A stretch of DNA of 64,000 bases, taken from assembly GCA_045863235.1 (NCBI GenBank), contig BTUM01000005.1, positions 58,912-122,911 of the forward strand. Reading direction: 5' to 3'. The notes beneath the pieces were generated by a model. That model saw nothing but the letters and a program-made list of their open reading frames with translations. It was not told where the DNA came from and did no database searches. Positions 817 through 47,994 of the stretch are shown piece by piece. The position numbers and the translations under genes were made by a program. The DNA comes from Candidatus Xenobia bacterium. GTDB lineage: Bacteria > Vulcanimicrobiota > Xenobia > Xenobiales > QWHO01. Every line of letters begins with the position of its first letter. The first letter of the stretch is position 1.

Positions 817-1089
817 TCAGTTTTCGTGGGTCATGTGGCGGATCAGGCCGAGCGCCTCCATGTAGGCGTGCAGGGTGGTCTCCTGCTCCTCGCGGTCTTC
901 CTGGTCCATTTTGCGGAACTTGATCACCTGCTTGAGGGCGTTGATGTCCAGCCCCTCGAGCTTGGCCTGGGCGAAAGTCTCGCGCAGCGCGGCCGCGATG
1001 GCGGTCTTTTCTTCCTCCAGGGATTCGATCCGTTGCACGTAGCGGGTCAGTTGCTCGGTGAGGCTTTCGACGTTCAAGACGACGGCCAT
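817..1089 (-). CDS. DUF2312 / GapR-like small DNA-binding protein
   Basis: 90-aa protein. The motif string RIESLEEEK...AKLEGLDINALKQVIKFRKMD..EDREEQETTLHAYMEALG matches the conserved GapR/DUF2312 pattern (R.ERLE.EK...AK..GFD.K.L..V...RK.D......E...Y..A.G). It sits 11 bp after the upstream MBL gene start. Confidence 0.7.
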   Translation of the reverse strand: MAVVLNVESLTEQLTRYVQRIESLEEEKTAIAAALRETFAQAKLEGLDINALKQVIKFRKMDQEDREEQETTLHAYMEALGLIRHMTHEN

Positions 1090-1215
1090 GGTCTGTTCCT
1101 CCTGGGCCCGGCCTGTGTGTTTCAGCGACGACAGGAGTGGTCGACGAATTTTTCGCTGGCCGGCGGCCGGGTGGTATTTTCTTCAACACCCGCGTTCCCT
1201 GCCGGACAGGAGTTC

Positions 1216-1246
1216 GATTTTGCGCCGGATCACACCGGAACGTGGC
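1216..1246. repeat. 31-bp motif gattttgcgccggatcacaccggaacgtggc (copy 1), ~85 bp upstream of CDS 1331..1828
   Basis: Near-identical copy at 5063..5093 (1 mismatch). Confidence 0.7.
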
Positions 1247-1330
1247 TCGGTAACAAAGAGTTCACAGCTTTTACAAATCTGCAATCGAATGTCTCCAGAA
1301 TGTACAGGCGCGGAACGGTATCATAGAGCC

Positions 1331-1828
1331 ATGGTCTCCGCTACCATCGTGGCTCAGCCTTACCAGTCCACCACTCTCGAGTTGCCGGGCGGGCGCGCCT
1401 TCACCGTGGCTGGCAACGGGGCCATCGAGCCCGAGTTGCTCGAATTGACAACTCGCCAGGACGGCCTGATCACCTCCATCCTGGATGAGCGGGTGGTCAA
1501 CCTGCTCAGCTTCGAGGCTGATACGCCGGGGAGCGAATGGAGGACGGGGCGGGATGCCTCTTTATCGGCCTCGTTCTACCTGCCTTCCGACCCCAGACGG
1601 ATCCGCGAGAACCCCCGGCAGGTGGTGGACGCCTCCTGGGAGCGGCGCGAGGTCAGGCTGATCACCAACCTCAATGATAACAACCTGCAACGGCACGAGA
1701 TTCAGGCTTCGTTCGACGACTGCGGGCGCATCATTCCCGAGACGGTGCGAGCCTCGATCTCGGTGGTGGTAGAGGACAACGAGTACTTCCTGGCTGGCGG
1801 CCAACGCTATGATGGCGCCACGCGCTGA
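1331..1828 (+). CDS. hypothetical protein
   Basis: Internal ATG at 1331 of ORF 1058..1828. Non-repetitive composition. The C-terminal motif GGQRYDGATR* and an upstream 31-bp motif are both duplicated near 5063-5145. Confidence 0.5.
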   Translation: MVSATIVAQPYQSTTLELPGGRAFTVAGNGAIEPELLELTTRQDGLITSILDERVVNLLSFEADTPGSEWRTGRDASLSASFYLPSDPRRIRENPRQVVDASWERREVRLITNLNDNNLQRHEIQASFDDCGRIIPETVRASISVVVEDNEYFLAGGQRYDGATR

Positions 1829-2193
1829 GGACTGAGGGCTCGGATCTCGGGATTCGTTTGGCCGCGATTGAGCGCTGGAGCTTGACCGAGCGCTGGTTTG
1901 CAGTGCCCGGGGGACGATGTCGCCGGCCTGTCGAACCCTCCCCCTATATGGCTCAACCCCCTGACCCCCGGGTGGCCGGCACCCTGGAGCAGCATCCCTG
2001 GCAGAGCGGCCCTGGCGTGGTCAGCTCGCTGCAGGACCGGATGGTCGACTCCGAGTCCACGCGTTGAGCGTTTCGTGCTGAACATTTCCTGCGGTTCGAA
2101 AGCTCCTCACTGGCAGAGCCGGCTCTGCATTGAAGGCAAGCAGATGCTCGGGTCGATAGCCGGGCCCGAGAACGGAAAGCAACGAGGAGGACC

Positions 2194-3864
2194 ATGACTG
2201 CCGAGATCATCTACACCAACGGGGACATCGTAACCGTGACCGGCCCCGAGGCCGAGGCTCTGGCCGTGGGTGGGGGCAAGATCTTGGCCGTCGGGTCGCG
2301 CGACGAGGTGATGAAGCTGAAAGGGCCGGACACCGAGGTGGTGGACCTGCGGGGACACACACTCTGTCCCGGATTCGTGGACGGCCACAGCCACTTCATG
2401 AATGCCCCCCAGATCGTGACCTGGGCCAATGTCTCGCCGGCCCCGGTGGGCCCGGTGCACGGGGTGGCCGACATCGTGGCTGCTCTCAAGGCCCACGTCG
2501 AGAAGCACCACCCCGCCAAAGGCGAGTGGATCATCGGCTACGGGTACGACGGCAACGAGCTCTCCGAGAGGCGCGAGCTGAACGTGGACGACCTCGATCC
2601 CAACTTCCCCGATAACCCTGTCTTGTTGATCCACGTTTCCAACCACGGAGCGGTGCTCAATACGGCCGCCCTTCGGCACTTCAACATCACCGCCGACACC
2701 CCCACCCCGCCCAGCGGCATCATCTTGCGTAAGCCGTGCAGCCAGGAGCCCGCCGGGCTCATCATGGAGACCGCCTTCTTGCCCGTCTTCGCCAAGCTTC
2801 CGAAGCCCAATGAGTCTGAGCTGCTCGACCGTTTCGAAGACGCTCAGCAGACCTATGCCAGTTGCGGTGTCACCACGGCGGTGGAAGGCATGACCGTGAG
2901 CGGCGACTTGAAGATTCTGCAGAAGGCTGCCGAGCAGGGCCGTCTCTACCTCGACGTGGTCTCATACGTCATGATCCTGGAGTTGGAAGAGATCCTCAAT
3001 GACAATCCCCCGGAGACGTTCGGCAAATATCACAACCGACTCAAGCTGGGCGGCGCTAAGGCTATGAGCGACGGCTCCCCGCAGGGGCGCACGGCCTTCT
3101 TTACCCAACCCTACCTGACGGGTGGGCCCAACGGCCAGGAGAACTGGCGGGGCGAGCCGACTCTGCCGCCCGAGACCTTCAAAGCGATGCTCAAGCTGGC
3201 CTATGACAACGGCTTGCACGTGCATTGCCACTCTAACGGCGATGCCGCAATCGACATGTTCTTGATGGCCCACGAGTACGCCGCCGGTGACGACCCGGGC
3301 GCCGATCGGCGCAGCACCGTCATCCATTCGCAGTTCGTGCGCAAAGATCAGCTGGAGAAATATGTCCGCTACAAGATCATCCCCTCGTTCTACACCGAGC
3401 ATACCTTCCTGTTCGCGGACGCCCACATGCGGAACCTGGGACCCGAGCGCACTCACTTCCTCAGCCCCATGAAGACGGCTCTCGAGATGGGGCTGCACTG
3501 CACCAACCACACCGACTACAGCGTGGCGCCCCTGAACCAGCTTTGGACGATGTGGTCGGCCGTCAACCGCTTATCTCGGTCAGGCGAGGTGATCGGCCCC
3601 GACGAGCGGGTTACACCCCTGCAGGCTTTGCGCGCCATCACCATCGAGGGGGCTTATCAGCACGGCGAGGAGGCCACCAAAGGCTCGCTGGAGGTCGGCA
3701 AGCTGGCCGATCTGGTTATCTTGAGCGCCAACCCTCTCAAGGTGGAGCCCAATGCCATCAAAGACATCCAGGTACTGCAGACCATCAAGGAAGGCCGGAG
3801 CATCTTCCGGGCCGAGGCCCTGACAGCGGCCCGGGCCAGGAGCGCAGCCGGAACCCCCCCTTGA
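2194..3864 (+). CDS. amidohydrolase-family metal-dependent hydrolase (Amidohydro_3-like)
   Basis: 556 aa. N-terminal TNGDIVT...ILAVG...LCPGFVDGHSHF metal-binding HxH motif. Later HCHSNGDAAID and C-terminal ADLVILSANPL motifs are typical of the amidohydrolase 3 family. Confidence 0.85.
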   Translation: MTAEIIYTNGDIVTVTGPEAEALAVGGGKILAVGSRDEVMKLKGPDTEVVDLRGHTLCPGFVDGHSHFMNAPQIVTWANVSPAPVGPVHGVADIVAALKAHVEKHHPAKGEWIIGYGYDGNELSERRELNVDDLDPNFPDNPVLLIHVSNHGAVLNTAALRHFNITADTPTPPSGIILRKPCSQEPAGLIMETAFLPVFAKLPKPNESELLDRFEDAQQTYASCGVTTAVEGMTVSGDLKILQKAAEQGRLYLDVVSYVMILELEEILNDNPPETFGKYHNRLKLGGAKAMSDGSPQGRTAFFTQPYLTGGPNGQENWRGEPTLPPETFKAMLKLAYDNGLHVHCHSNGDAAIDMFLMAHEYAAGDDPGADRRSTVIHSQFVRKDQLEKYVRYKIIPSFYTEHTFLFADAHMRNLGPERTHFLSPMKTALEMGLHCTNHTDYSVAPLNQLWTMWSAVNRLSRSGEVIGPDERVTPLQALRAITIEGAYQHGEEATKGSLEVGKLADLVILSANPLKVEPNAIKDIQVLQTIKEGRSIFRAEALTAARARSAAGTPP

Positions 3865-3947
3865 CGCGGCATATCGTGCCGGTCCGGCCGCCCACAGCAC
3901 TTTGTGGTGGCGGAGGCTCCCTTCGATACAACAGGGGACTTCCTTTG

Positions 3948-4886
3948 TCAGGAGGCCTTATCGAGCAGTTCCATGTCCTCCGGGCTCAGCTTGAGCTCGA
4001 CGGCTTTGAGCAGTTCGCTGAGTTGGTCCAGGTTGGACGCGCTGGCGATTGGCGCCGTCACTCCCGGTCGGTCCATCAGCCAGGCCAGCGAAATCTGAGC
4101 CAGAGTCGCCCCGGTGCGGGCCGAGACATCGTCTAAGGCTTTCAGGACTCGCTGGCCGCGCTCTCCCAGGTAGCCCTTGAGCATTCGACCCCTCACGCTC
4201 TTGCCCAGGTCGGCCTCGGTGCGGTACTTGCCGGTCAGAAAGCCGCTGGCCAGAGAGTAGTAGCCGAAAACCCCGAGACCTTCTCGTTGGCACAGGGGTA
4301 GCAGATCTGCTTCGATACTCCGCTCCATGAGGCTGTACTGGGGTTGGAGAGCCTGGTAACGAGGCAGGGAGTTCTTTCGGCTCACCTCCAGTGCCTGCTG
4401 CAGGCGCTCGGCAGTGAAGTTGGAGGCCCCGATGTAGCGTACTTTACCCTGCTGTATCAAATCAGCGTAGGCCTGCAGGGTCTCTTCCACGGGTGTCTCG
4501 GGATCGTCGTGATGGGAGAGGTAGAGGTCGATATAGTCGGTCTTGAGCCGGCTCAGAGATGCTTCAACGGCCTGCTGGATGTATGCGGCCGACAGCCCCT
4601 TGCCACCCGGCATCGGTCCCCCCACCTTGGTGACCAGCACCACCTGGTCTCGGTTCCTGCGGGCGGCCAACCAGTCCCCCAGCACCCTCTCGGAGTCACC
4701 ACCTGTCGAGCCTGGCTGCCAGCGGGCGTAGACATCGGCCGAATCGATGAAATTGAAGCCCGCCCCCAGAAAGGCGTCGAGCAAACGAAAGGAGGTCTCC
4801 GCGTCGACCGTCCAGCCGAGCACGTTGCCGCCGAAGCAGAAGGGGGAGACTTCAAGGTCGGAGTGGCCGAGAGGACGCTTTTTCAC
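3948..4886 (-). CDS. aldo/keto reductase
   Basis: 312 aa. FNFIDSADVY, KVRYIGASNF and LAWLM motifs are characteristic of AKR family oxidoreductases. Confidence 0.9.
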   Translation of the reverse strand: MKKRPLGHSDLEVSPFCFGGNVLGWTVDAETSFRLLDAFLGAGFNFIDSADVYARWQPGSTGGDSERVLGDWLAARRNRDQVVLVTKVGGPMPGGKGLSAAYIQQAVEASLSRLKTDYIDLYLSHHDDPETPVEETLQAYADLIQQGKVRYIGASNFTAERLQQALEVSRKNSLPRYQALQPQYSLMERSIEADLLPLCQREGLGVFGYYSLASGFLTGKYRTEADLGKSVRGRMLKGYLGERGQRVLKALDDVSARTGATLAQISLAWLMDRPGVTAPIASASNLDQLSELLKAVELKLSPEDMELLDKAS

Positions 4887-5062
4887 GAGGCCTGGACTTC
4901 GCCTGGAACGGGAGATTCCCCTGGCTTTCCTAAAGCGGGCTCACCCGGTAAACGCAGCTTTTCAAAGGCAACGCTCGATGAACCACCGTCCACAGATCGA
5001 GCGAGCGCAAGAGCTCGCACCGGCAACTCTGTTGGGTAGCAGGAAATTCAGCTCGATAGTTG

Positions 5063-5093
5063 GATTTTGCGCCGGATCAGACCGGAACGTGGC
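5063..5093. repeat. 31-bp motif copy 2, followed at 5104..5145 by a relic copy of the 3' end of CDS 1331..1828
   Basis: Position 5063-5093 matches 1216-1246. Position 5104-5145 (tacttgccggccgatggccagcgctacgacggcgcccgctga) aligns with 1784-1828 (tacttcctggctggcggccaacgctatgatggcgccacgcgctga). Confidence 0.7.
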
Positions 5094-5190
5094 CCACATC
5101 GGGTACTTGCCGGCCGATGGCCAGCGCTACGACGGCGCCCGCTGAGAGATACCCGGGAGGGGAGCCCAGCTCGCCGCGGAATTCGGCTCG

Positions 5191-6636
5191 ATGCGCCACC
5201 TCCTCATGCTCGTTCTCGCCCTCCTTCCTCTGGCAGCCTGCGGTGGAGCGGACAGCCTTCCCGCCCCGGTTGAGCCGCCGGCGGTCTCAGTCGTGGAGCT
5301 GCGTTTCTCGCTGGCCCGGCGCGCCATCCCGGCCGGGGTCACGCAGCTTCGTTTCACGGGTTTTGACGGCAACGAGCTGCTCTCATTCGGCGATGTGACC
5401 CACCCCAAAGCCGAAGTGATCCGGCTGCGTGACGTTCCTTCCAGCGTCGCCTTTCTCACTATCGAGTACCTGGCCGGCGAGCGGGCTCAGGGCCGTGGCT
5501 CGGTCTCGGTACAGCTTTCTCCTGACCAGACGACCATCGTCGAGGACCCGCCCTTTCAAGACGTCCAGCCTCAAGCTCTGGGGGTGAACTTCAACGGGCT
5601 GCTGGCCACCATCGACCTGAGCGACCTCGAGCGCACCCGCACCCGCTGGATCCGGTGCTTTGTCGACTACTTCGAATGGCAGCAGAACCCCTCGTCCTTC
5701 GAGTCGGGTTTTCAAAAGCTGCGGCAAGCCCACCAGGCCGGTTACCTCGTCATTGTCAACCTGAAGTTCAACTTCGAGGGCAAGCTCTTTCCGATGGGTC
5801 CCCTGGAGACCGAGCAGTTGCTGCAAGACGTACCGGCTCTGCTGGACAAGGTCTACTCCAACTGCGACATCCTGGTGATCGGCAACGAGCCCTTCATCGA
5901 GTCCCAGAAGGGCGTGCAGCGGGGCGAGCCCCTCATTGCCTTTTATCAGGCCGCGGCCTTGAAGGTGAAGGCCTACTGGGACCGGCAACAGCACCAGGTC
6001 CCTCTCTATCTGGGAGCCTACGACAGCATCTGGAAGAGTGAGCCCTGGCAGCAGCAGGCCGAACCTCTGCTCGAATTTACCCGCAAGCAGCGCTGGCTCC
6101 AGGGGGCCGACCTGCATCTGCACCAGACCGAGAACGTCGACATCGACGAAGCCTTCCGCTTCGTCCAGCCCCGGCTGCGCAAAGACCAGAGCATTCTCAT
6201 CACGGAGTTCTCCCAGGTCAACTATTACCTGGAGTTCAACCAGGACTTCATCCCTGCCAGCCTGATCTTGCAGTACGGCCGGCCCGACGACTGGTTCGTC
6301 TACAATTACCTCAATTACGCCCTGGGGAACCCGGTTAGCCTCCAGGAGTGGACCACCTTCCTCAAGGACAGCCCCTGGTTTGAAAGTAAGAAAGACTACC
6401 TCAACGTGGCCTGGGGCAAGTTTCAGGCCCATCCGCAGGTCGCGGTGGCGACCTACGGCATGTACCAGAGCTGCCCGCCGCAGTTCACGAAGTCTGATCA
6501 GCCCTGGATCCTCAACCCGCTGTTCGCCAACCAGACCGTCGTGCTCGACCCGGACCCCCAGCCCAACTACCCGTTTTTCGAGCAGTTCCTGGCCATCCAG
6601 GCCGCGCTGGACGCCCGGGCGAGCTCGATCAAGTAA
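5191..6636 (+). CDS. lipoprotein, putative clan GH-A glycoside hydrolase-like TIM-barrel
   Basis: Signal peptide plus lipobox (LLPLAAC). The ILVIGNEP motif resembles the catalytic NEP motif of GH5/GH26-type hydrolases. The family assignment is tentative. Confidence 0.65.
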   Translation: MRHLLMLVLALLPLAACGGADSLPAPVEPPAVSVVELRFSLARRAIPAGVTQLRFTGFDGNELLSFGDVTHPKAEVIRLRDVPSSVAFLTIEYLAGERAQGRGSVSVQLSPDQTTIVEDPPFQDVQPQALGVNFNGLLATIDLSDLERTRTRWIRCFVDYFEWQQNPSSFESGFQKLRQAHQAGYLVIVNLKFNFEGKLFPMGPLETEQLLQDVPALLDKVYSNCDILVIGNEPFIESQKGVQRGEPLIAFYQAAALKVKAYWDRQQHQVPLYLGAYDSIWKSEPWQQQAEPLLEFTRKQRWLQGADLHLHQTENVDIDEAFRFVQPRLRKDQSILITEFSQVNYYLEFNQDFIPASLILQYGRPDDWFVYNYLNYALGNPVSLQEWTTFLKDSPWFESKKDYLNVAWGKFQAHPQVAVATYGMYQSCPPQFTKSDQPWILNPLFANQTVVLDPDPQPNYPFFEQFLAIQAALDARASSIK

Positions 6637-6695
6637 GTAGTAGGCCCCTTTCAGCCATCCAGGGCTACACTGGGCTCAAGGTCCGCTCCCAGGAG

Positions 6696-8351
6696 CTACT
6701 TCTCCGACAGTCTTCCCAGCAAGCGCAGCTCATCGCTCAGCGCCACCACGTCCACCAGCTCGAGCGAGCGCAGCAGCTCTCGCACCGGCAGCCTGTTGGG
6801 CAGCAGGAAATCCAGCTCGAGCACGCTCAGCCCCGCCAGGGTGCGAGTCCGGATGGCCTCCTGCTCGGGGAGACTGCGCTCGAGGATGTGGGGCGAGAGA
6901 AACTCGAGCGATTCGATGTTGGGCTTGAGGCGAATGTGCCCGCCCTGGCCGCTCAACAGGGTGGCCGTGCCCTGCAGGCGGGCGCCCGGCTCGTCCCCCT
7001 GGAACAGGCCCGCCAGCTTCCAGTGCACGTTCACCACCGAGTCCAGAATGCGAAACAGCCCGTTCTCGTAACGCAGCGACAGAGAGGTGAGGATCACGTC
7101 CGTCACCTCCAGTTTGAACAAGAGCACCTGCTGCGACATGCGCAGGTTCTTGGGGATGGGGCGCTTGATGGGCAGAAGGCCGGGCACGTTCCGCTCCAGG
7201 GCCGTGTTGACGGCCTCGGGCGAGAGGGCCACCACGAACTCGTGCCCGTTCAGTCGATTGGCCAGCAGGTTGGGACCCGAAGCCTGCTCCACGACCGGTC
7301 CGGCCACCGACAGGAATCCGGTGCGCCGGTCGCCGGTGGGGACGGTCCAGACCCCCAGCTGATCCGACGAGCTGAGAATTCCGCTGCGGTCCAGGTCGGG
7401 GGCGTAGGCCCCGGGCACCGGCAGGCTGACCCCCGTGCCCAGTTGCTGGGCCAGGATCGTCTGCAGCCCGGCCGTCCAGCCCGGGGGCACGGGCAGGTGC
7501 AGGGGCCGGATGAGGCGCATCTCCAGCGTGTTGGGCACCAGCTCGACGCGCAACTGCCCCCGAGAAAAGCGCGGCTCGACAACCACCCCCCACTCGCCCT
7601 CCGTTTCGCCCAGGCTCTTGCCCTGAAAGAAGACGGCGCCTTTCACCAGGCCAAAGAAGCGCAGCTGGCCCGGGCCGCAATCGAGCAGGGTGGCTCCGAT
7701 GCGCGAGACCTCAAAGCGGGTGCTCTGGGAGGGGTCGCTCCAGGAGAGCTGCTTCTTGTGGGTGGCCAGGAATGCCTGGAGACAGCGGTTCAGAAAGGTC
7801 TCCGAGAGCTGACAGATGACCCGTACCGGGCCAGCCTGGGCCATCGGAGGGTCGGTCTGGGCGAACAGCGGGTCATACAGGGTTCCGTCCACGTAGTTTC
7901 CGGTCAGGGTGAACTGCGCGAGAGCGCTGAACTGTTGCCAGGCGGCCTCCTCCTCGGGGGTCTCCAGGGCCAGCCGGGCCGAAATCTTGCCGTCCAGCAG
8001 CACGGTAGGAGGGTCGGAAGAAACCACCGTGGCCTGCATGCGCCCCCGCCACAGCTCCTGCCCGGTCACCGGCAGGGCGGTGGGGCGGGAGCCGAGCGGA
8101 CCGGACAGGCGCACCCGGTCGCCCGCGAAGTCCCCCCGCAGGCGCACCCGGGTGCCGCTGCCGAGCAGACCCAGCAGGGTAGGGTCTCCCTCCACCACCC
8201 AGCGTCGGGTGCGGGGGACGGTGTAGTCGAACGAGGGCGAGATCTCGGCCTCGGTGCTCAGAAGGCCGCGGTGCAGCACCACCAGCCGGCGCTCCTCGGC
8301 CAGAGCGGGCACGCCCAGCATGACGATCAGGACGAGGAGGATTCGCGCCAT
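6696..8351 (-). CDS. secreted hypothetical protein, last gene of the kinase/FHA-ABC operon
   Basis: Only the C-terminal 551 aa of the 906-aa ORF 6696..9416 is plausible. It starts MARILLVLIVMLGVPALA (signal peptide). The start overlaps the stop of the FHA-ABC gene by 25 bp. Confidence 0.6.
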   Translation of the reverse strand: MARILLVLIVMLGVPALAEERRLVVLHRGLLSTEAEISPSFDYTVPRTRRWVVEGDPTLLGLLGSGTRVRLRGDFAGDRVRLSGPLGSRPTALPVTGQELWRGRMQATVVSSDPPTVLLDGKISARLALETPEEEAAWQQFSALAQFTLTGNYVDGTLYDPLFAQTDPPMAQAGPVRVICQLSETFLNRCLQAFLATHKKQLSWSDPSQSTRFEVSRIGATLLDCGPGQLRFFGLVKGAVFFQGKSLGETEGEWGVVVEPRFSRGQLRVELVPNTLEMRLIRPLHLPVPPGWTAGLQTILAQQLGTGVSLPVPGAYAPDLDRSGILSSSDQLGVWTVPTGDRRTGFLSVAGPVVEQASGPNLLANRLNGHEFVVALSPEAVNTALERNVPGLLPIKRPIPKNLRMSQQVLLFKLEVTDVILTSLSLRYENGLFRILDSVVNVHWKLAGLFQGDEPGARLQGTATLLSGQGGHIRLKPNIESLEFLSPHILERSLPEQEAIRTRTLAGLSVLELDFLLPNRLPVRELLRSLELVDVVALSDELRLLGRLSEK

Positions 8352-10516
8352 CGTAAGGCCACCCAGCAGGCTGCAAGATAGATCGAGAGCAGCGGACCCA
8401 GCACCGACCAGACCTGCCCTGCCGAAAGATAGAAGTCGCTCGTGATCCAGCCCATGCCCAGCTCCATGAAGCGGCTGTTCAGGTTGAGCAGGTGGCCCAA
8501 CCCGGCGAACACCCAGCGGCTGATCGAAAGCACGCTGAGAAAGGCGATGGGGCCGGCCATGCCCTCGGGCTTGACGAAGGCCCCGCTGAGCACGATCTGC
8601 AGGATCAAGATGACCGACACCAGCGACATGGCCTGCTCGGTGGACTGGGCCAGACAGCTCAGCAACAGGCCCATCAGCACCCCTCCCAGGCAGGCTCCGG
8701 CCAGAAAGCCGTAGAGCTCGAGTTGCTCGGTGAGGCTCAGGCTCATCTGGATGCGGGACGTCACGATGAGCTGCAGAATCAGGGCCTGAATCATCCCCAG
8801 CACGCCCAGCAGCAGAACCTTGGACAGGAGATAGGGCGGAAGCTGCAGGTTGACCAGCCGCTCGCGCTCGAGGATGGAGCGCTCTTTGACCACCTCGCGG
8901 CAGGCGTTGATCACCCCGAACAGGATGCAGCTCACCATCATCGTGAACATCACGGTGGGGCCGTCCACGATGGGGAACTTGCCCTCGCCGGTCACCTCCT
9001 GGTTGAGCCGGAAGAGGTCGGCCGGGAATAAAAACGCCAGGATGAGCGCGATGAGAGGTGCCTGGCCCAACAACAGGGCCAGATTGGTGCGGTCGCTGAG
9101 CAGGAGGTTGGTATAGCGCTCGACCAGGACCGTCAGCTGGCGGATGCCGGTGGCCAGGGTCTTCAAGGGATGGCGACGCGAGCGGATGGTCCGAACCGGC
9201 GGAGCCTGCAGCTGGGTGGGCGCGGCCGAGGCCACGTAGAGTGCGTAGAGTCGGCTCTGGCGAAAGCGCTGCTCCCACTCCACGCCGGCCTGGGGGCTGA
9301 GCAGCTTGAGGTAGATGTCGGCGAAGTCCTCCACCTGGAAGAACTCCAACGCCTCGCGGGGAGGGCCATAGTAGACCAGTCGGCCGCCTGGGGCCAGGAA
9401 GGCCACCTTGTCGCACAGCACGATGTTCTGGGTGGCGTGGGTGATCAGCACGATGGTGCGGCCCTGGCGCGCGAGCTGGGCATAGAGCTGCATGGCCTTC
9501 TTCTCCAGGCCAGGATCAAGACCGCTGGTGGGCTCGTCGAGGAAGAAGACGCCCGGCTCGGTCAAGAGCTCGACCGCCACGCTGACACGCTTTCGCTCGC
9601 CGCCCGAGAGGTTGGCGATGCGGGTGGTGCGGCGATGGGCCAGGTCGACGCTGGCCAGCACGAAGTCGATGCGACGGCTCACCTCACTGGGACGGGTGTC
9701 GGGCGGCAGGCGCAGGCGAGCCGCGTAGAGCAGGGCCGACTCCACGGTCAGCTCGCGGTGCACGATGTCGTCTTGCGGTACGTAGCCGAGCAGGTGGCGG
9801 AAGGCCTCGGCCGGGAGCCCGTTGTAGAGCACCTGGCCCGAGGTGGGGGAACGCTGGCCGATCATGCATTTGAGCAGGGTCGACTTGCCCGCCCCGCTGG
9901 TGCCCACCAGGGCCACGAACTCGCGCGGGCGCAAGGGCAGCGTGATGTGGTTGAGGATGGGCCGGCTGGCGGTGGGAGGATGGAAGACCACGTCCATCAC
10001 GTCGATCCTGACCTGGCCGCGCTCGTCGAACTCGCGCAAGGTGTGACCGTCGAAGGTGAGCCGACAGGGGCCGATGTAGACCTGCTGACCGGGTCCGAGT
10101 CGGGCCTCGTCCACCCGCTGGCCGTCCACGAAGATGCCGTTGGAGCTGCCCAGGTCCTTGAGCCGGTAACCCTGCTCGGTGCGCAGCAGCTCGGCGTGAT
10201 AAGCGCTGACCATGGGAGAGTCGAGCACCAGGTCGGCGTCCCGGGCGCGTCCGATCACGAGGCGCTCGCGAGCCGTGGGGGGACCCATCAGGAAATAGCG
10301 CTCGCCGTCCACCTCGAATTGATCGCCCACCGAGATGGGGGTCAGGCGGTCGACTCGATCACCATTCAGCTCGGCTCGGCCGTGCACCACCTCGAGCCAC
10401 CAGGCGCCGTCCATGGAGAGCAAGCGCACCCGATCATGGCGCCCCAGAATCAAGCCAGCGGCCAGCGGTTGGGGCAGCGAGCCCTCCAGGGCGACGTGGG
10501 TGGGGGGACTGCTCAT
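8327..10516 (-). CDS. FHA-domain ABC transporter (two N-terminal FHA domains, ABC ATPase, ABC-2 permease fused); Rv1747-like
   Basis: FHA motifs (LILGRHDRVRL...; LVIGRARDADLVLDSPMVSAYHAEL...GSSNGIFVDGQRV). Walker A GTSGAGKST, ABC signature LSGGERKR, Walker B FFLDEPTSGLD. Six C-terminal TM helices. Confidence 0.9.
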   Translation of the reverse strand: MSSPPTHVALEGSLPQPLAAGLILGRHDRVRLLSMDGAWWLEVVHGRAELNGDRVDRLTPISVGDQFEVDGERYFLMGPPTARERLVIGRARDADLVLDSPMVSAYHAELLRTEQGYRLKDLGSSNGIFVDGQRVDEARLGPGQQVYIGPCRLTFDGHTLREFDERGQVRIDVMDVVFHPPTASRPILNHITLPLRPREFVALVGTSGAGKSTLLKCMIGQRSPTSGQVLYNGLPAEAFRHLLGYVPQDDIVHRELTVESALLYAARLRLPPDTRPSEVSRRIDFVLASVDLAHRRTTRIANLSGGERKRVSVAVELLTEPGVFFLDEPTSGLDPGLEKKAMQLYAQLARQGRTIVLITHATQNIVLCDKVAFLAPGGRLVYYGPPREALEFFQVEDFADIYLKLLSPQAGVEWEQRFRQSRLYALYVASAAPTQLQAPPVRTIRSRRHPLKTLATGIRQLTVLVERYTNLLLSDRTNLALLLGQAPLIALILAFLFPADLFRLNQEVTGEGKFPIVDGPTVMFTMMVSCILFGVINACREVVKERSILERERLVNLQLPPYLLSKVLLLGVLGMIQALILQLIVTSRIQMSLSLTEQLELYGFLAGACLGGVLMGLLLSCLAQSTEQAMSLVSVILILQIVLSGAFVKPEGMAGPIAFLSVLSISRWVFAGLGHLLNLNSRFMELGMGWITSDFYLSAGQVWSVLGPLLSIYLAACWVALRWRESSSS

Positions 10517-12072
10517 TTCGGTGCGGCCCTTGGCACCTCGCGGGCCGCCTGCCGGAACAGGTCGCGGTCGGCTTCGCTGAGCGACTCGATGGCCTCCAGG
10601 ATGGCCCCGGTGGTCAGCGGTCCCTCGCGCACTCGGTGCCGGGCCCGGTCGTAAACCTTCTCAAAGAGCGGGCTGACGGGGCCCCCCTTGCGGAGGGGAT
10701 GCTCGCGCTCATACTCCTGGGTGGCCTCGGGTCGCTCGCCCCGGCGCAGGGCCAGCTGATCGCGCAGCAGGGCCAGCCACCAGACCGCCAGCTCGTCGGC
10801 CTTGACCCCCATGCGGGTGGCCATGGCGGGTGTGATCTCGATCAGGGGGGGCTCGTCGGGCAGGGCCAGCACCCACAGCTCCTTGCGCTTCTCGCTGCGG
10901 ATGCGGGCCGGCCGGGGCACTTGCTCGCGCAGCAGGGCCACCAGCCGGTCGCCCGAGCGCTGAGCTCGCAACAGGCCGTCTTCGCCTCGTCGCGACTCGA
11001 ACAGGGCCACTTCGGCCCCATGCATGGTCACGGCAGTGGCCAGGCCGGCGGCCTGGAAGACCGGCTGGTTGCCGACACCGTCCTGCATCCAGACCGGTAC
11101 GACCAGGTTCTGGACCAGCCCCACGCCAGCCAGCACGATAGCCAGCATCAAAACCAGCACGGGCAGCCACCAGGGCGGGCGGCGAGCCGCCTCTTTGCCC
11201 CCCGATCCCGATACGGCCACCACCTGGGTGAGATGGGGGAGGGTCGCTCCCTCGGCCGGACCCTCCAGAGCCTTCACGAACTCTTCGGCAGTGGCGTAGC
11301 GATGGCGGGGATCCTTCTCCAGGCACCGCAGCACCACCATGTCCAGGTTGCGAGGCACCTCGGAGCGCAGCCGCGAGGGTGGGGGAGGCATCTGGTAGGC
11401 CTGGCGCGAGATGGTCTCGGCCACGTTCTCGGAGTGGAAGGGCGACTGGCCGGTGAGCATCTCGTAGAACACCAGCCCCAATGAGTAGAGGTCGCTCTGG
11501 GGGCCGATGGAGGCGTTGGACAGCTGCTCGGGGCTCATGTACTCGGGAGTGCCGGGCAAGAAACCGGTGCGGGTCAGGACCGGACCGGCCGAGACACGGG
11601 CCACGCCGAAGTCGGTCAGGATGATCTGATCCGGCGAAGGACAGAGCAGGTTCTCTGGCTTCAGATCGCGGTGCACCACTCCCTGGGAGTGGGCGTACTG
11701 CAGGGCTTCGCCGACCTGGCCGGCCAGCTCGACGGCCTGCTCGACGGGCATGGGCCCCTGCTCGTGCAGCACCTCGCGCAACGTCTTGCCGGCTACGTAG
11801 CGCATCACCAGGTAGTGGCCGGCCTCATGGTCCTCGCCATACTCGAGCAGCTTGACGATGTTGGGGTGATCGAGCCGGGCGGTGATGGCCGCCTCCTGGG
11901 CGAAACGCTGGATGAAGGTGGGATCGTCGGTGTGGGGGCCGGTCAGGATCTTGAGGGCCACGGGCTCCTCACCGGGTCGGCTGGCCAGGTAGACCGCCCC
12001 CATGCCCCCCACGCCCAGCTTGCGCTCGACCTGATAGGGCCCGATGCTCTTGCCTACAAAGCTCCTGGCCAT
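10513..12072 (-). CDS. eukaryotic-like Ser/Thr protein kinase with C-terminal TM and extracytoplasmic region
   Basis: Hanks-kinase motifs GVGGMGAVY, VALK, HRDLKPEN, DFG, GTPEYMSPE. Start chosen at ATG 12072 (MARSFVGKSIGPYQV). The stop overlaps the FHA-ABC start by 4 bp (ATGA). Confidence 0.9.
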   Translation of the reverse strand: MARSFVGKSIGPYQVERKLGVGGMGAVYLASRPGEEPVALKILTGPHTDDPTFIQRFAQEAAITARLDHPNIVKLLEYGEDHEAGHYLVMRYVAGKTLREVLHEQGPMPVEQAVELAGQVGEALQYAHSQGVVHRDLKPENLLCPSPDQIILTDFGVARVSAGPVLTRTGFLPGTPEYMSPEQLSNASIGPQSDLYSLGLVFYEMLTGQSPFHSENVAETISRQAYQMPPPPSRLRSEVPRNLDMVVLRCLEKDPRHRYATAEEFVKALEGPAEGATLPHLTQVVAVSGSGGKEAARRPPWWLPVLVLMLAIVLAGVGLVQNLVVPVWMQDGVGNQPVFQAAGLATAVTMHGAEVALFESRRGEDGLLRAQRSGDRLVALLREQVPRPARIRSEKRKELWVLALPDEPPLIEITPAMATRMGVKADELAVWWLALLRDQLALRRGERPEATQEYEREHPLRKGGPVSPLFEKVYDRARHRVREGPLTTGAILEAIESLSEADRDLFRQAAREVPRAAPK

Positions 12073-13777: not shown

Positions 13778-14844
13778 TCGCGCACAAAATGGTCGTCTTG
13801 AAAGACGTACTTGCCCTGGCTGGTGGTGATGCGCCCATCCTTGACCGTGACCGGAGAGTCACTGGGGAATCGGTAGCGCAGCAGCTTTTCGCGGGTGGCC
13901 GTGACCAGGTCCAGGGCGTGCTCGCCTTCCTCGAGCTCGAGAAAGAGCAGCGCGTCCTTATGCTCGGTGACCCGTTCCGAGCGGATCTCCAGCAAGCGCA
14001 CGGCCAGGTCGGGCTTGAGCAGAGGCTTGCCATCCAGCTTGACGAACTCGATGGGAGCCTGCTTGTAGACCCGTCGCTGACGGCGCAGAGCCTCCACCTT
14101 CAGCCCTACCTCACCCTGCCCGGGCTCGATCACCCGCAGCAACTCATTGTCGGTGTCCTGGTCGAGATCGACGGAAAGGCTGCCGACCAGTTTGCCAGGC
14201 CAGGTCACCTGCCCCATCCAACCCTCCTCGGCCAGGGTCTCCAGCGAGCGGGCCGGGTCGGAGGAGAGGCCGGTCAACTCGTTGAGGCAGGCGACGAAGT
14301 CCTGCTCGAGATAGAAGCTGCGAGCCCGGGCCAGTTTGCGAGATTCGCTCGAGCCGATCCGATCGGCCAGTTGGCGAAGCGCGCCGCCGTCGCGCAGCTG
14401 CCAGGCTTGTTCTGCCTGCTCTCTCAAGCGTGCTTGTTGAAACTGGCCCAGTCCCAGGCCGAGGAGACCCAGGCCCAGGGACAGGCCCAGCAGGCCGCCC
14501 AGCAGGGCGTGACTTCGGCGTCGGTGGGGGGCGGGTTGGGAGGCGGCAGCCATGAGGCGGCGCAGACCCCCCTGGCCCAGCCAGACCCCTGAGCAGGAGG
14601 GGCAGGCCTCCAGCTCCTGGCCCTCCGCCTTTGCAAGACAGAGCTTCTGGCCGCAAGAAGGGCAGCTCGAGGCTCCAGTGCGAGCCGGCTCCAACTTGAG
14701 AGCGCTGGGAGCCAGGCGACACAGGGCTGCCAGGTCGCCGGCCGAGAGGAAGGTGCCCCCACACTTGGGGCAGCTTTGCAGGCTGCGACCGAGCACCTCG
14801 AGGCCGGTCAGGGCGGTTTGGTCGGCAGGGCAGAGGGGCTCCAT
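13774..14844 (-). CDS. single-pass membrane protein with tandem N-terminal zf-TFIIB-like zinc ribbons (anti-sigma-factor-like)
   Basis: Start at ATG 14844 (MEPLCP...). CPKCGGTFL...AGDL and CPSCGQKL...CPSCSGVWLGQGGL match the CPxCxxxL...CxxCxGxWxD pattern. A Gly/Leu TM helix and a ~200-aa periplasmic domain follow. Translationally coupled to the S2P gene. Confidence 0.65.
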   Translation of the reverse strand: MEPLCPADQTALTGLEVLGRSLQSCPKCGGTFLSAGDLAALCRLAPSALKLEPARTGASSCPSCGQKLCLAKAEGQELEACPSCSGVWLGQGGLRRLMAAASQPAPHRRRSHALLGGLLGLSLGLGLLGLGLGQFQQARLREQAEQAWQLRDGGALRQLADRIGSSESRKLARARSFYLEQDFVACLNELTGLSSDPARSLETLAEEGWMGQVTWPGKLVGSLSVDLDQDTDNELLRVIEPGQGEVGLKVEALRRQRRVYKQAPIEFVKLDGKPLLKPDLAVRLLEIRSERVTEHKDALLFLELEEGEHALDLVTATREKLLRYRFPSDSPVTVKDGRITTSQGKYVFQDDHFVRE

Positions 14845-47666: not shown

Positions 47667-47994
47667 GCAGCGACTTGCTCCTCCAGTCGAGCCCCTGACC
47701 CACTGAGCTCGTCAAAGATCCGGTAACTTCGCCGCAACAGTCCGGCAAAGGATCGGCAATGCTTCGTTCATCCGGGGACGGTAGGCTTGAGGCAGAAACC
47801 CGGCGAAGATCCGTGACGACAGCCGGGCTAGAAGTCCGGCCGCAAGCCCCCTGTGGTGTCGGAGGGAACCTCCGCCACCACAAGATGTTGTAGGCGCCCG
47901 GACTTCTAGCACTACATGTTTGGGCGTCGCGCAGCCGGAAAACCGTGTCAAGGGGGTTTCCGGCTGCGCTCCTGAATTCATCGAGGAGCAGCTG

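Follow-up and report, generated by a model that had tools for sequence, protein, structure and literature searches.

The spacer between the aldo-keto reductase (AKR) gene and the lipoprotein gene L in this contig of Candidatus Xenobia bacterium contains what, to judge from its homologies, is a non-coding patchwork of c. 180 nt (positions 4969-5146). It is composed of three scraps of nearby sequence, termed Y', A', and T' in that order, and the segment that had been flagged in an earlier sequence-only reading is its right two thirds. All coordinates refer to the window, i.e. the whole 64-kb stretch of DNA that was analyzed, and are collected in Table 1. The patchwork is best explained (we put the probability at about 0.6) as the join point of a duplicative recombination between two versions of the locus, after which the second copy of gene X was deleted. 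As such it appears to be a recombination scar with no function of its own.

Table 1. Features of the X-Y locus, in window coordinates
Feature	Position	Strand	Remarks
A, parent 36-nt block	1211..1246	+	In the GapR-X spacer, 85 nt upstream of the X ATG; contains the 31-mer (1216-1246)
Conserved block between A and the X ATG	1247..1330	+	TATCAT at 1319-1324; identity 78/84 (L001), 74/84 (L018), 59/84 (L007)
Gene X	1331..1828	+	Product of 165 aa without a Pfam family; T' corresponds to the tail (1776-1828)
Lineage-specific insert	1830..4968	.	Amidohydrolase 2194-3864 (+), AKR 3948-4886 (-), and spacers
Y', frameshifted relic of the Y 3' end	4969..5056	-	Y residues 511-521 and 525-536, in two frames
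Join point Y'/A'	5057	.	Single base T between the copies of 6820 and 1211
A', second 36-nt block	5058..5093	+	Contains the 31-mer (5063-5093); 34/36 to A of the window
Putative deletion junction A'/T'	5094..5095	.	Placeable only to 5094-5103; GTGG at both parental edges
T', relic of the last c. 17 codons of X	5096..5145	+	Stop TGA at 5143-5145; ancestral position in front of L
Ancestral X-L spacer	5146..5190	+	Colinear with the sequence past the X stop in L001
Gene L	5191..6636	+	Predicted lipoprotein of 481 aa, signal peptide ending LAAC; 77% aa identity to L of L007
Gene Y	6696..8351	-	Product of 551 aa without a Pfam family; Y' derives from 6731-6820

Composition of the patchwork

The 31-mer GATTTTGCGCCGGATCACACCGGAACGTGGC occurs exactly twice in the 64-kb window, unchanged at 1216-1246 and with one mismatch at 5063-5093. 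The sequence-only reading had reported this pair, and it was borne out: a match was found in 0 of 100 shuffles, and the repeat really comprises 36 nt (5058-5093 compared to 1211-1246, with 34 of 36 positions identical). Relative to the corresponding block in the loci of relatives (numbered with the prefix L and described below), A' is identical at 33/36 positions in L001 and 30/36 in L018, with nothing comparable in L007 and L009. The possibility that the 31-mer is a generic repeat present at many sites, raised along with the original observation, was checked with a negative result. A search of 185,579 species genomes, in which the three known variants of the 31-mer were encoded, returned a single match (L013), which is the orthologous site of a relative, and each relative locus holds one copy. 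With two copies in the 64-kb window and that one match among the species genomes, the many unrelated intergenic copies of a dispersed (REP- or MITE-like) repeat were not seen; for further copies in the source genome, the search covered 64 kb.

Starting 2 bases after A', positions 5096-5146 were aligned to 1776-1829, which comprise the last 17 codons of X, its stop codon, and the first base past the stop. The alignment spans 54 columns, 41 of them identical, with a single 3-nt gap and with the two stop codons in register. Its local score of 26 was the highest of any place in the window (the next best was 22), and in 1000 shuffles the mean was 10.6 and the highest score 18. Read in frame, T' yields ...YLPADGQRYDGAR followed by a stop, compared to DNEYFLAGGQRYDGATR and a stop in the X tail (in the longer form, ...YFLAGGQRYDGATR and a stop). 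The homolog of a gene tail that had been noticed just upstream of the lipoprotein gene is confirmed by these results, and it extends over the last 50 nt of X. Both ends of the parental unit are present in the same order and orientation while its middle is missing, A' and T' being 2 nt apart and their parents 529 nt apart. No intact frame or signals remain: X's start codon has gone together with the conserved block that follows A, and what is left is an 18-codon frame that begins with GTG. Compared to L001, the decay of T' is lopsided, with 7 mismatches in the first 23 nt, as opposed to 1 mismatch plus the 3-nt gap in the final 30. The actual junction of the deletion may be closer to 5104-5118, or constraint may act on the 3' part.

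The suggestion that this segment is an internally deleted paralog holds in part. With order, orientation, and stop position kept, 5058-5146 is the remnant of a second unit of 36-mer plus X from which almost all of X was deleted. It is not an old, dispersed paralog: T' is located at the ancestral, syntenic place before L, and it is closer to the X tails of relatives (47/55 in L001 and 46/54 in L018) than to that of its own genome (41/54); the values for L007 and L009 were 40/53 and 28/37, respectively.

The third scrap, Y', had been missed. Positions 4969-5056 duplicate 6731-6820, which lie in the 3' end of Y on the minus strand. The alignment of the two has 76 identities in 93 columns, 8 of them gap columns, with four small indels; a 43-nt core is 90.7% identical (E 1.7e-7). 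Lower counts were obtained with the Y genes of L001 (68/91), L018 (61/73), L007 (56/73), and L009 (51/69). A leftward extension toward the Y stop codon, which may reach 4944, was not significant on its own. Judged by eye on these small samples, A' with its 2 differences in 36 seems less decayed than Y', in which 17 of 93 columns differ.

The spacer between the AKR gene and L has the layout Y', A', T', 45 nt of spacer, and then L. At the first join, the copy of Y position 6820 adjoins the copy of position 1211 in direct orientation, with 1 nt between them. The presence of Y' beside the 36-mer marks the patchwork as a join point of a rearrangement, one connected with the entry of two genes (1830-c. 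4960). No clear microhomology was detected at 5057 or in 5094-5103, and the junction of A' and T' is blurred. The open reading frames that run over the patchwork (4747-5145, 5060-5398, and, on the minus strand, 4962-5099) are by-products, not genes.

The locus in relatives and the inserted genes

Xenobia is a class within the phylum Vulcanimicrobiota, formerly Eremiobacterota. The loci used for comparison were contigs carrying homologs of X, together with two that were found with Y. Homologs of X formed only 3 clusters among 5.8 billion proteins, and no Pfam or PADLOC family was matched by X, L, or Y. The C-terminal 70% of L has scattered homologs at 58% identity or less, including in Steroidobacter and a fungus. 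In most relatives, X, L, and Y adjoin an FHA-domain ABC transporter and a Ser/Thr kinase.

The clean case is that of L007 and L008 (X 84% identical at the amino-acid level), in which the order is PIN(-), X, L, Y(-) and the X stop lies 35 nt before the L start. L001-L006 and L019 (X 97% at the amino-acid level, flanks ca. 92% at the nucleotide level) have GapR(-), A, X, scraps of L, a 439-aa gene, and Y(-). In L001, the scraps occupy 10499-10774 and match window positions 5147-5203 (part of a hit spanning 5096-5203 and including the start of L), 6133-6233 (91%), 6556-6602 (94%), and 6640-6673 (L-Y spacer); by this pattern they are the product of an independent decay of the gene, at the same locus, by multiple internal deletions. 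L018 (Y 95% at the amino-acid level) has GapR(-), A, X, a 451-aa gene that is 95% identical to the 439-aa gene of the L001-type loci, a type II DNA methyltransferase (Pfam N6_N4_Mtase), and Y(-). Apart from this methyltransferase, no PADLOC defence model was matched. In L009 and L010 (X 61% at the amino-acid level), GapR(-) and X are followed by an M50 peptidase, and the Y block is found elsewhere in inverted order. A scan of metagenomes with Y yielded one further allele (L018) and no intermediate.

A second A or a Y' was absent from L001-L010, L018, and L019, and relatives had no comparable repeats. Because the relatives lack the amidohydrolase and reductase in the X-Y interval as well as the second A and Y', the ancestral order is, by this comparison, GapR(-), A, X, L, Y(-). 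The homology of T' runs on colinearly through the X-L spacer of L001 (5096-5190 compared to L001 10446-10543, 72/98, blastn E 4e-12) and continues into the start of L; T', spacer, and L together are thus the ancestral, syntenic junction from X tail to L. Four other contents of the X-Y interval were encountered in relatives, namely L alone, L scraps with the 439-aa gene, the 451-aa gene with the type II methyltransferase, and a rearranged form (M50 peptidase). On the comparison of these alleles, the interval counts as a proven gene-swapping hot spot in which scraps are left behind and no mobile-element genes are visible.

An amidohydrolase and an AKR between X and L or Y were absent from every relative examined, and among the loci compared, the insert and the scar co-occur only in the window genome. 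The amidohydrolase is 100% identical to the protein with locus tag AMXMBFR33_10320 of Candidatus Xenobia bacterium. Its five closest homologs (75-66% identity) are located in unrelated neighbourhoods, none of the five accompanied by the reductase, X, or Y. The base composition of the insert is not distinctive. In the spacers at 1829-2193, 3860-3950, and 4887-4968, neither blastn (word size 7) nor blastx gave convincing evidence of further remnants, whether of X, L, Y, the 439/451-aa gene, the methyltransferase, or the M50 peptidase. Between the convergent amidohydrolase and reductase genes there is a 60-nt hairpin-containing element (3882-3941, plus strand) with the core CCGCCCACAGCACTTTGTGGTGGCGG. 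A second, inverted copy with 83% identity is found 44 kb away (47844-47903, minus strand). With these two copies in the window, the element may be a terminator-type intergenic repeat.

Two side observations concern the relatives' contigs. Contig CAYYHB010000140.1 (L002/L013) is labelled "uncultured Burkholderiales bacterium" and has a DNA identity to the window of ca. 92% in the GapR-X part and of 89% in the part with Y and the ABC transporter; its label or the MAG binning is probably wrong. In the GapR-X spacer of L018, two perfectly matching 23-nt arms of an inverted repeat enclose a 7-nt loop (14524-14576); only one of the arms is present in the window (1122-1150) and neither in L001 (30-nt gap). 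Seen in these three loci, the GapR-X spacer is structurally unstable.

The intact X tail and its relic differ in their affinities. The last 34 nt of intact X (1795-1828) have 6 differences from L001, two of which are amino-acid changes, and the rest of X differs by ca. 5%. A Poisson estimate for 6 differences in 34 nt gave P ~0.008, for a stretch that was chosen after the data had been seen. T' has the L001/L018 state at 5 of the 5 assessable sites among these six. Because T' has the state of the relatives where the intact tail differs, the two X tails of the window genome represent different alleles, which a simple duplication within one genome does not account for. The homology between the window and L001 ends at 1829, right past the intact X stop, and the cluster of differences suggests a recombination crossover inside the tail of X.

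Candidate signals around X and L

In the sequence-only reading, the 31-mer had been taken for a promoter or operator or, alternatively, for an operator shared by two promoters. The first proposal was not borne out; it is the conserved block beside the X start (1247-1330) that the second locus has lost. In orthologs, TAYCAT is conserved 6 nt before the X ATG and there is no Shine-Dalgarno sequence; the block is probably the promoter of X, with a leaderless start. The ATG of L likewise has no Shine-Dalgarno sequence, and its lack at both genes is compatible with leaderless or Shine-Dalgarno-independent starts in the Xenobia lineage. Because the block is missing at the second locus, A' would bring no X promoter to L. 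The shared operator found no support either, since A is no better conserved than its flanks and no such motif precedes L in L007 and L008, in which L comes directly after X. At the orthologous site, A is kept at 35/36 positions in L001 and 32/36 in L018 and is degenerate in L009 (20/36) and L007 (17/36). For L018, L009, and L007, respectively, the left flank is kept at 58/60, 44/60, and 15/60 positions, and the right flank at 74/84, 44/84, and 59/84.

No Rfam match was obtained for the whole window at the gathering threshold or for 900-5400 at E<=1. The predicted folding of A, of A', and of both strands of 5045-5190 was no better than that of shuffles (z from -0.48 to +0.43). A consensus scan of 1000-5400 for sigma-70 promoters and terminators gave no promoter-like site, and the only notable terminator-like hairpins in it were those after X (1832-1851). 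Because 3.3 kb and an opposite-strand gene separate L from X, transcription of L should begin within 4887-5190. A weak candidate promoter, TTGGGT-N17-GATAGT (5032-5060), straddles the Y'/A' junction; it was found by reading the sequence, and the consensus scan did not report it.

History of the locus, rival explanations, and meaning

We propose that the ancestral arrangement would have been merged with an alternative version of the locus, in which the amidohydrolase and AKR genes followed X. Most probably, a circularised fragment would have entered by a single homologous crossover or, equivalently, a second copy of the chromosome would have taken part in an unequal one (Campbell type). The product would be a direct duplication, A-X-cargo-Y' joined to A'-X'-L-Y, in which the internal Y position 6820 was set beside 1211. 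The second X and its promoter block would then have been lost in a single deletion of ca. 530 bp, reaching from just past the 36-mer (1246) to ca. 50 nt before the stop (ca. 1776), and Y' would have decayed by small indels. Because the boundary of Y' and A' is the join of the duplication and A'-T' is colinear with A-X, two breakpoints would account for all three scraps. Two sub-versions can be envisaged. In one, a circle of A, X-star, cargo, and Y' would have crossed over inside X, which would account for the imported look of 1795-1828 and the native T'. In the other, the resident allele would have been X-star, cargo, Y, and its Y tail would have been the site of the crossover with a circle of A, X, L, and Y'. 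The contexts of homologs of X, L, Y, and the amidohydrolase contained neither an intermediate with an intact second X after the reductase nor a donor allele X-amidohydrolase-AKR-Y (the closest amidohydrolase homolog, at 75%, has an unrelated context), and a search with L gave no close relatives showing the intermediate. Identity profiles of Y compared to L001 and L007 had no clear step of the kind expected at a recombination breakpoint.

Formation of the patchwork in one step is possible but unlikely. The left side of the amidohydrolase-AKR block would have paired with homologous sequence in X and its right side would have been joined illegitimately, by homology-facilitated illegitimate recombination (HFIR) or by break-induced replication with template switching; c. 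90 nt of Y and 36 nt from upstream of X would have served as filler before the rejoining at the X tail, and there would never have been a complete second X or L. That the scraps are short (ca. 90, 36, and 50 nt) with sources within a few kb agrees with this account, as does the absence of an intermediate with a full second X, and an imported intact X tail beside a native T' is what a left-hand homologous crossover in X would produce. Cases of HFIR are on record from several bacteria, and it has been proposed as the cause of gene displacement that leaves 3' ends behind (PMC5361080). However, three template switches are needed, as opposed to two breakpoints for the duplication; neither the direct orientation of both fillers nor the exact order of a duplication join (Y 3' end, A, X tail) is predicted; and the joints have no clear microhomology. 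The same join of Y (6820) to A (1211) would result from a plain tandem duplication of A-X-L-Y (3' end) within one genome, followed by replacement of the first L with the amidohydrolase-AKR block and deletion of the second X. Although the greater similarity of Y' to its own Y (76/93, vs. 68/91 for L001) is in its favor, this scenario is very unlikely: it needs three events, there is no trace of a first L in 1830-4968, and it gives no reason for the differences, at 5 to 6 of 34 sites, between the functional X tail and the relic, in which the state of the relatives is still kept.

Still less probable is a functional cis element, i.e. selection on the 31/36-mer at both loci as an operator of X and L or an att-like site, with an incidental similarity of the tails. 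Of the three scraps, A' has decayed least (34/36), its two edges fall at breakpoints of the rearrangement, and the clear homology between L007 and the window starts just past A. On the other hand, the conservation of A does not exceed that of its flanks in orthologs, L lacks the motif in L007 and L008, the motif was matched once in 185,579 species genomes and occurs once in each relative locus, its sole dyad (CCGG-N6-CCGG) is broken in L001, there is no recombinase gene nearby, and the tail homology is both highly significant and colinear. An assembly artefact is scarcely credible, even though the sequence comes from a metagenome-assembled genome and the locus exists in nature as several alleles, from which a contig mixing two strains' versions might be built. 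Chimeric joins form at identical shared k-mers and give colinear swaps. The copies here are 76-94% identical with indels, and the Y'/A' junction occurs in no single allele. Moreover, an independent Logan assembly of run DRR491769 has 0 mismatches over an overlap of ca. 13.9 kb, patchwork included, though it was probably made from the same reads as the window assembly. A more ambitious version of the duplicative merger is rather improbable: the X-Y interval would be a dedicated gene-swapping hot spot of Xenobia that merges whole alleles by circle integration, and the patchwork would have been co-opted as a promoter or leader of L. The candidate promoter at 5032-5060 may then act from within the scar, or the 18-codon frame (5089-5145) may have been retained so that translation of L can be coupled to it; were this true, a recombination junction would have given rise to a promoter or leader.

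Duplicative merger of two alleles has parallels in known systems. In an E. coli assay for illegitimate integration, the commonest outcome was a single crossover between circle and chromosome, in which 109-950 bp of the homologous locus were duplicated (PMC3240628). The patchwork resembles the join left by Campbell integration or tandem duplication, in that a direct duplication flanks inserted DNA and a downstream sequence is joined to an upstream one in direct orientation. It differs in that one copy is nearly all deleted, the partner is a postulated one, and no plasmid, phage, or integrase was seen. HFIR (de Vries and Wackernagel 2002, Prudhomme et al. 2002, and Meier and Wackernagel 2003, as cited in PMC5361080) likewise has foreign genes entering beside a homologous anchor (here X or Y) with the other end joined without homology, and the 6 differences in 34 nt of the X tail make a crossover anchor in X plausible. 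In the classical form, however, recipient DNA is deleted at microhomologies of 3-10 nt, whereas in the present locus recipient sequence is duplicated and clear microhomology was not seen. The orphan 3' gene ends of Rhs, CDI, and T6SS effector loci (PMC5361080) are similar in that an old 3' end is displaced downstream by a new block, which enters behind the constant part of a gene, at a hot spot with many contents. In contrast to those, no toxin or immunity domains were detected here (Pfam, PADLOC), the cargo is metabolic, the displaced tail is c. 17 codons long with 2-3 residue differences, and a scrap of a convergent neighbour gene is included. Ordinary pseudogene fragments share with the patchwork that they are short, frameshifted or truncated, lineage-specific, and non-coding; unlike them, it has three parents, and their arrangement records a rearrangement. 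The kind of feature is well known and this instance of it undescribed; the patchwork is an ordinary recombination scar that will not surprise a specialist.

For annotation, the finding is a warning that neither of the plus-strand frames over the scar (4747-5145 and 5060-5398) should be entered as a gene, nor the repeat as a regulatory motif. The order of the scraps would record how two metabolic genes entered a conserved Xenobia locus, by a duplicative merger of alleles and a reductive deletion and with no mobile-element genes. Together with the other versions of the X-Y interval in relatives, the scar marks this interval as a hot spot of recombination, in a phylum for which there has been hardly any work on genome dynamics.
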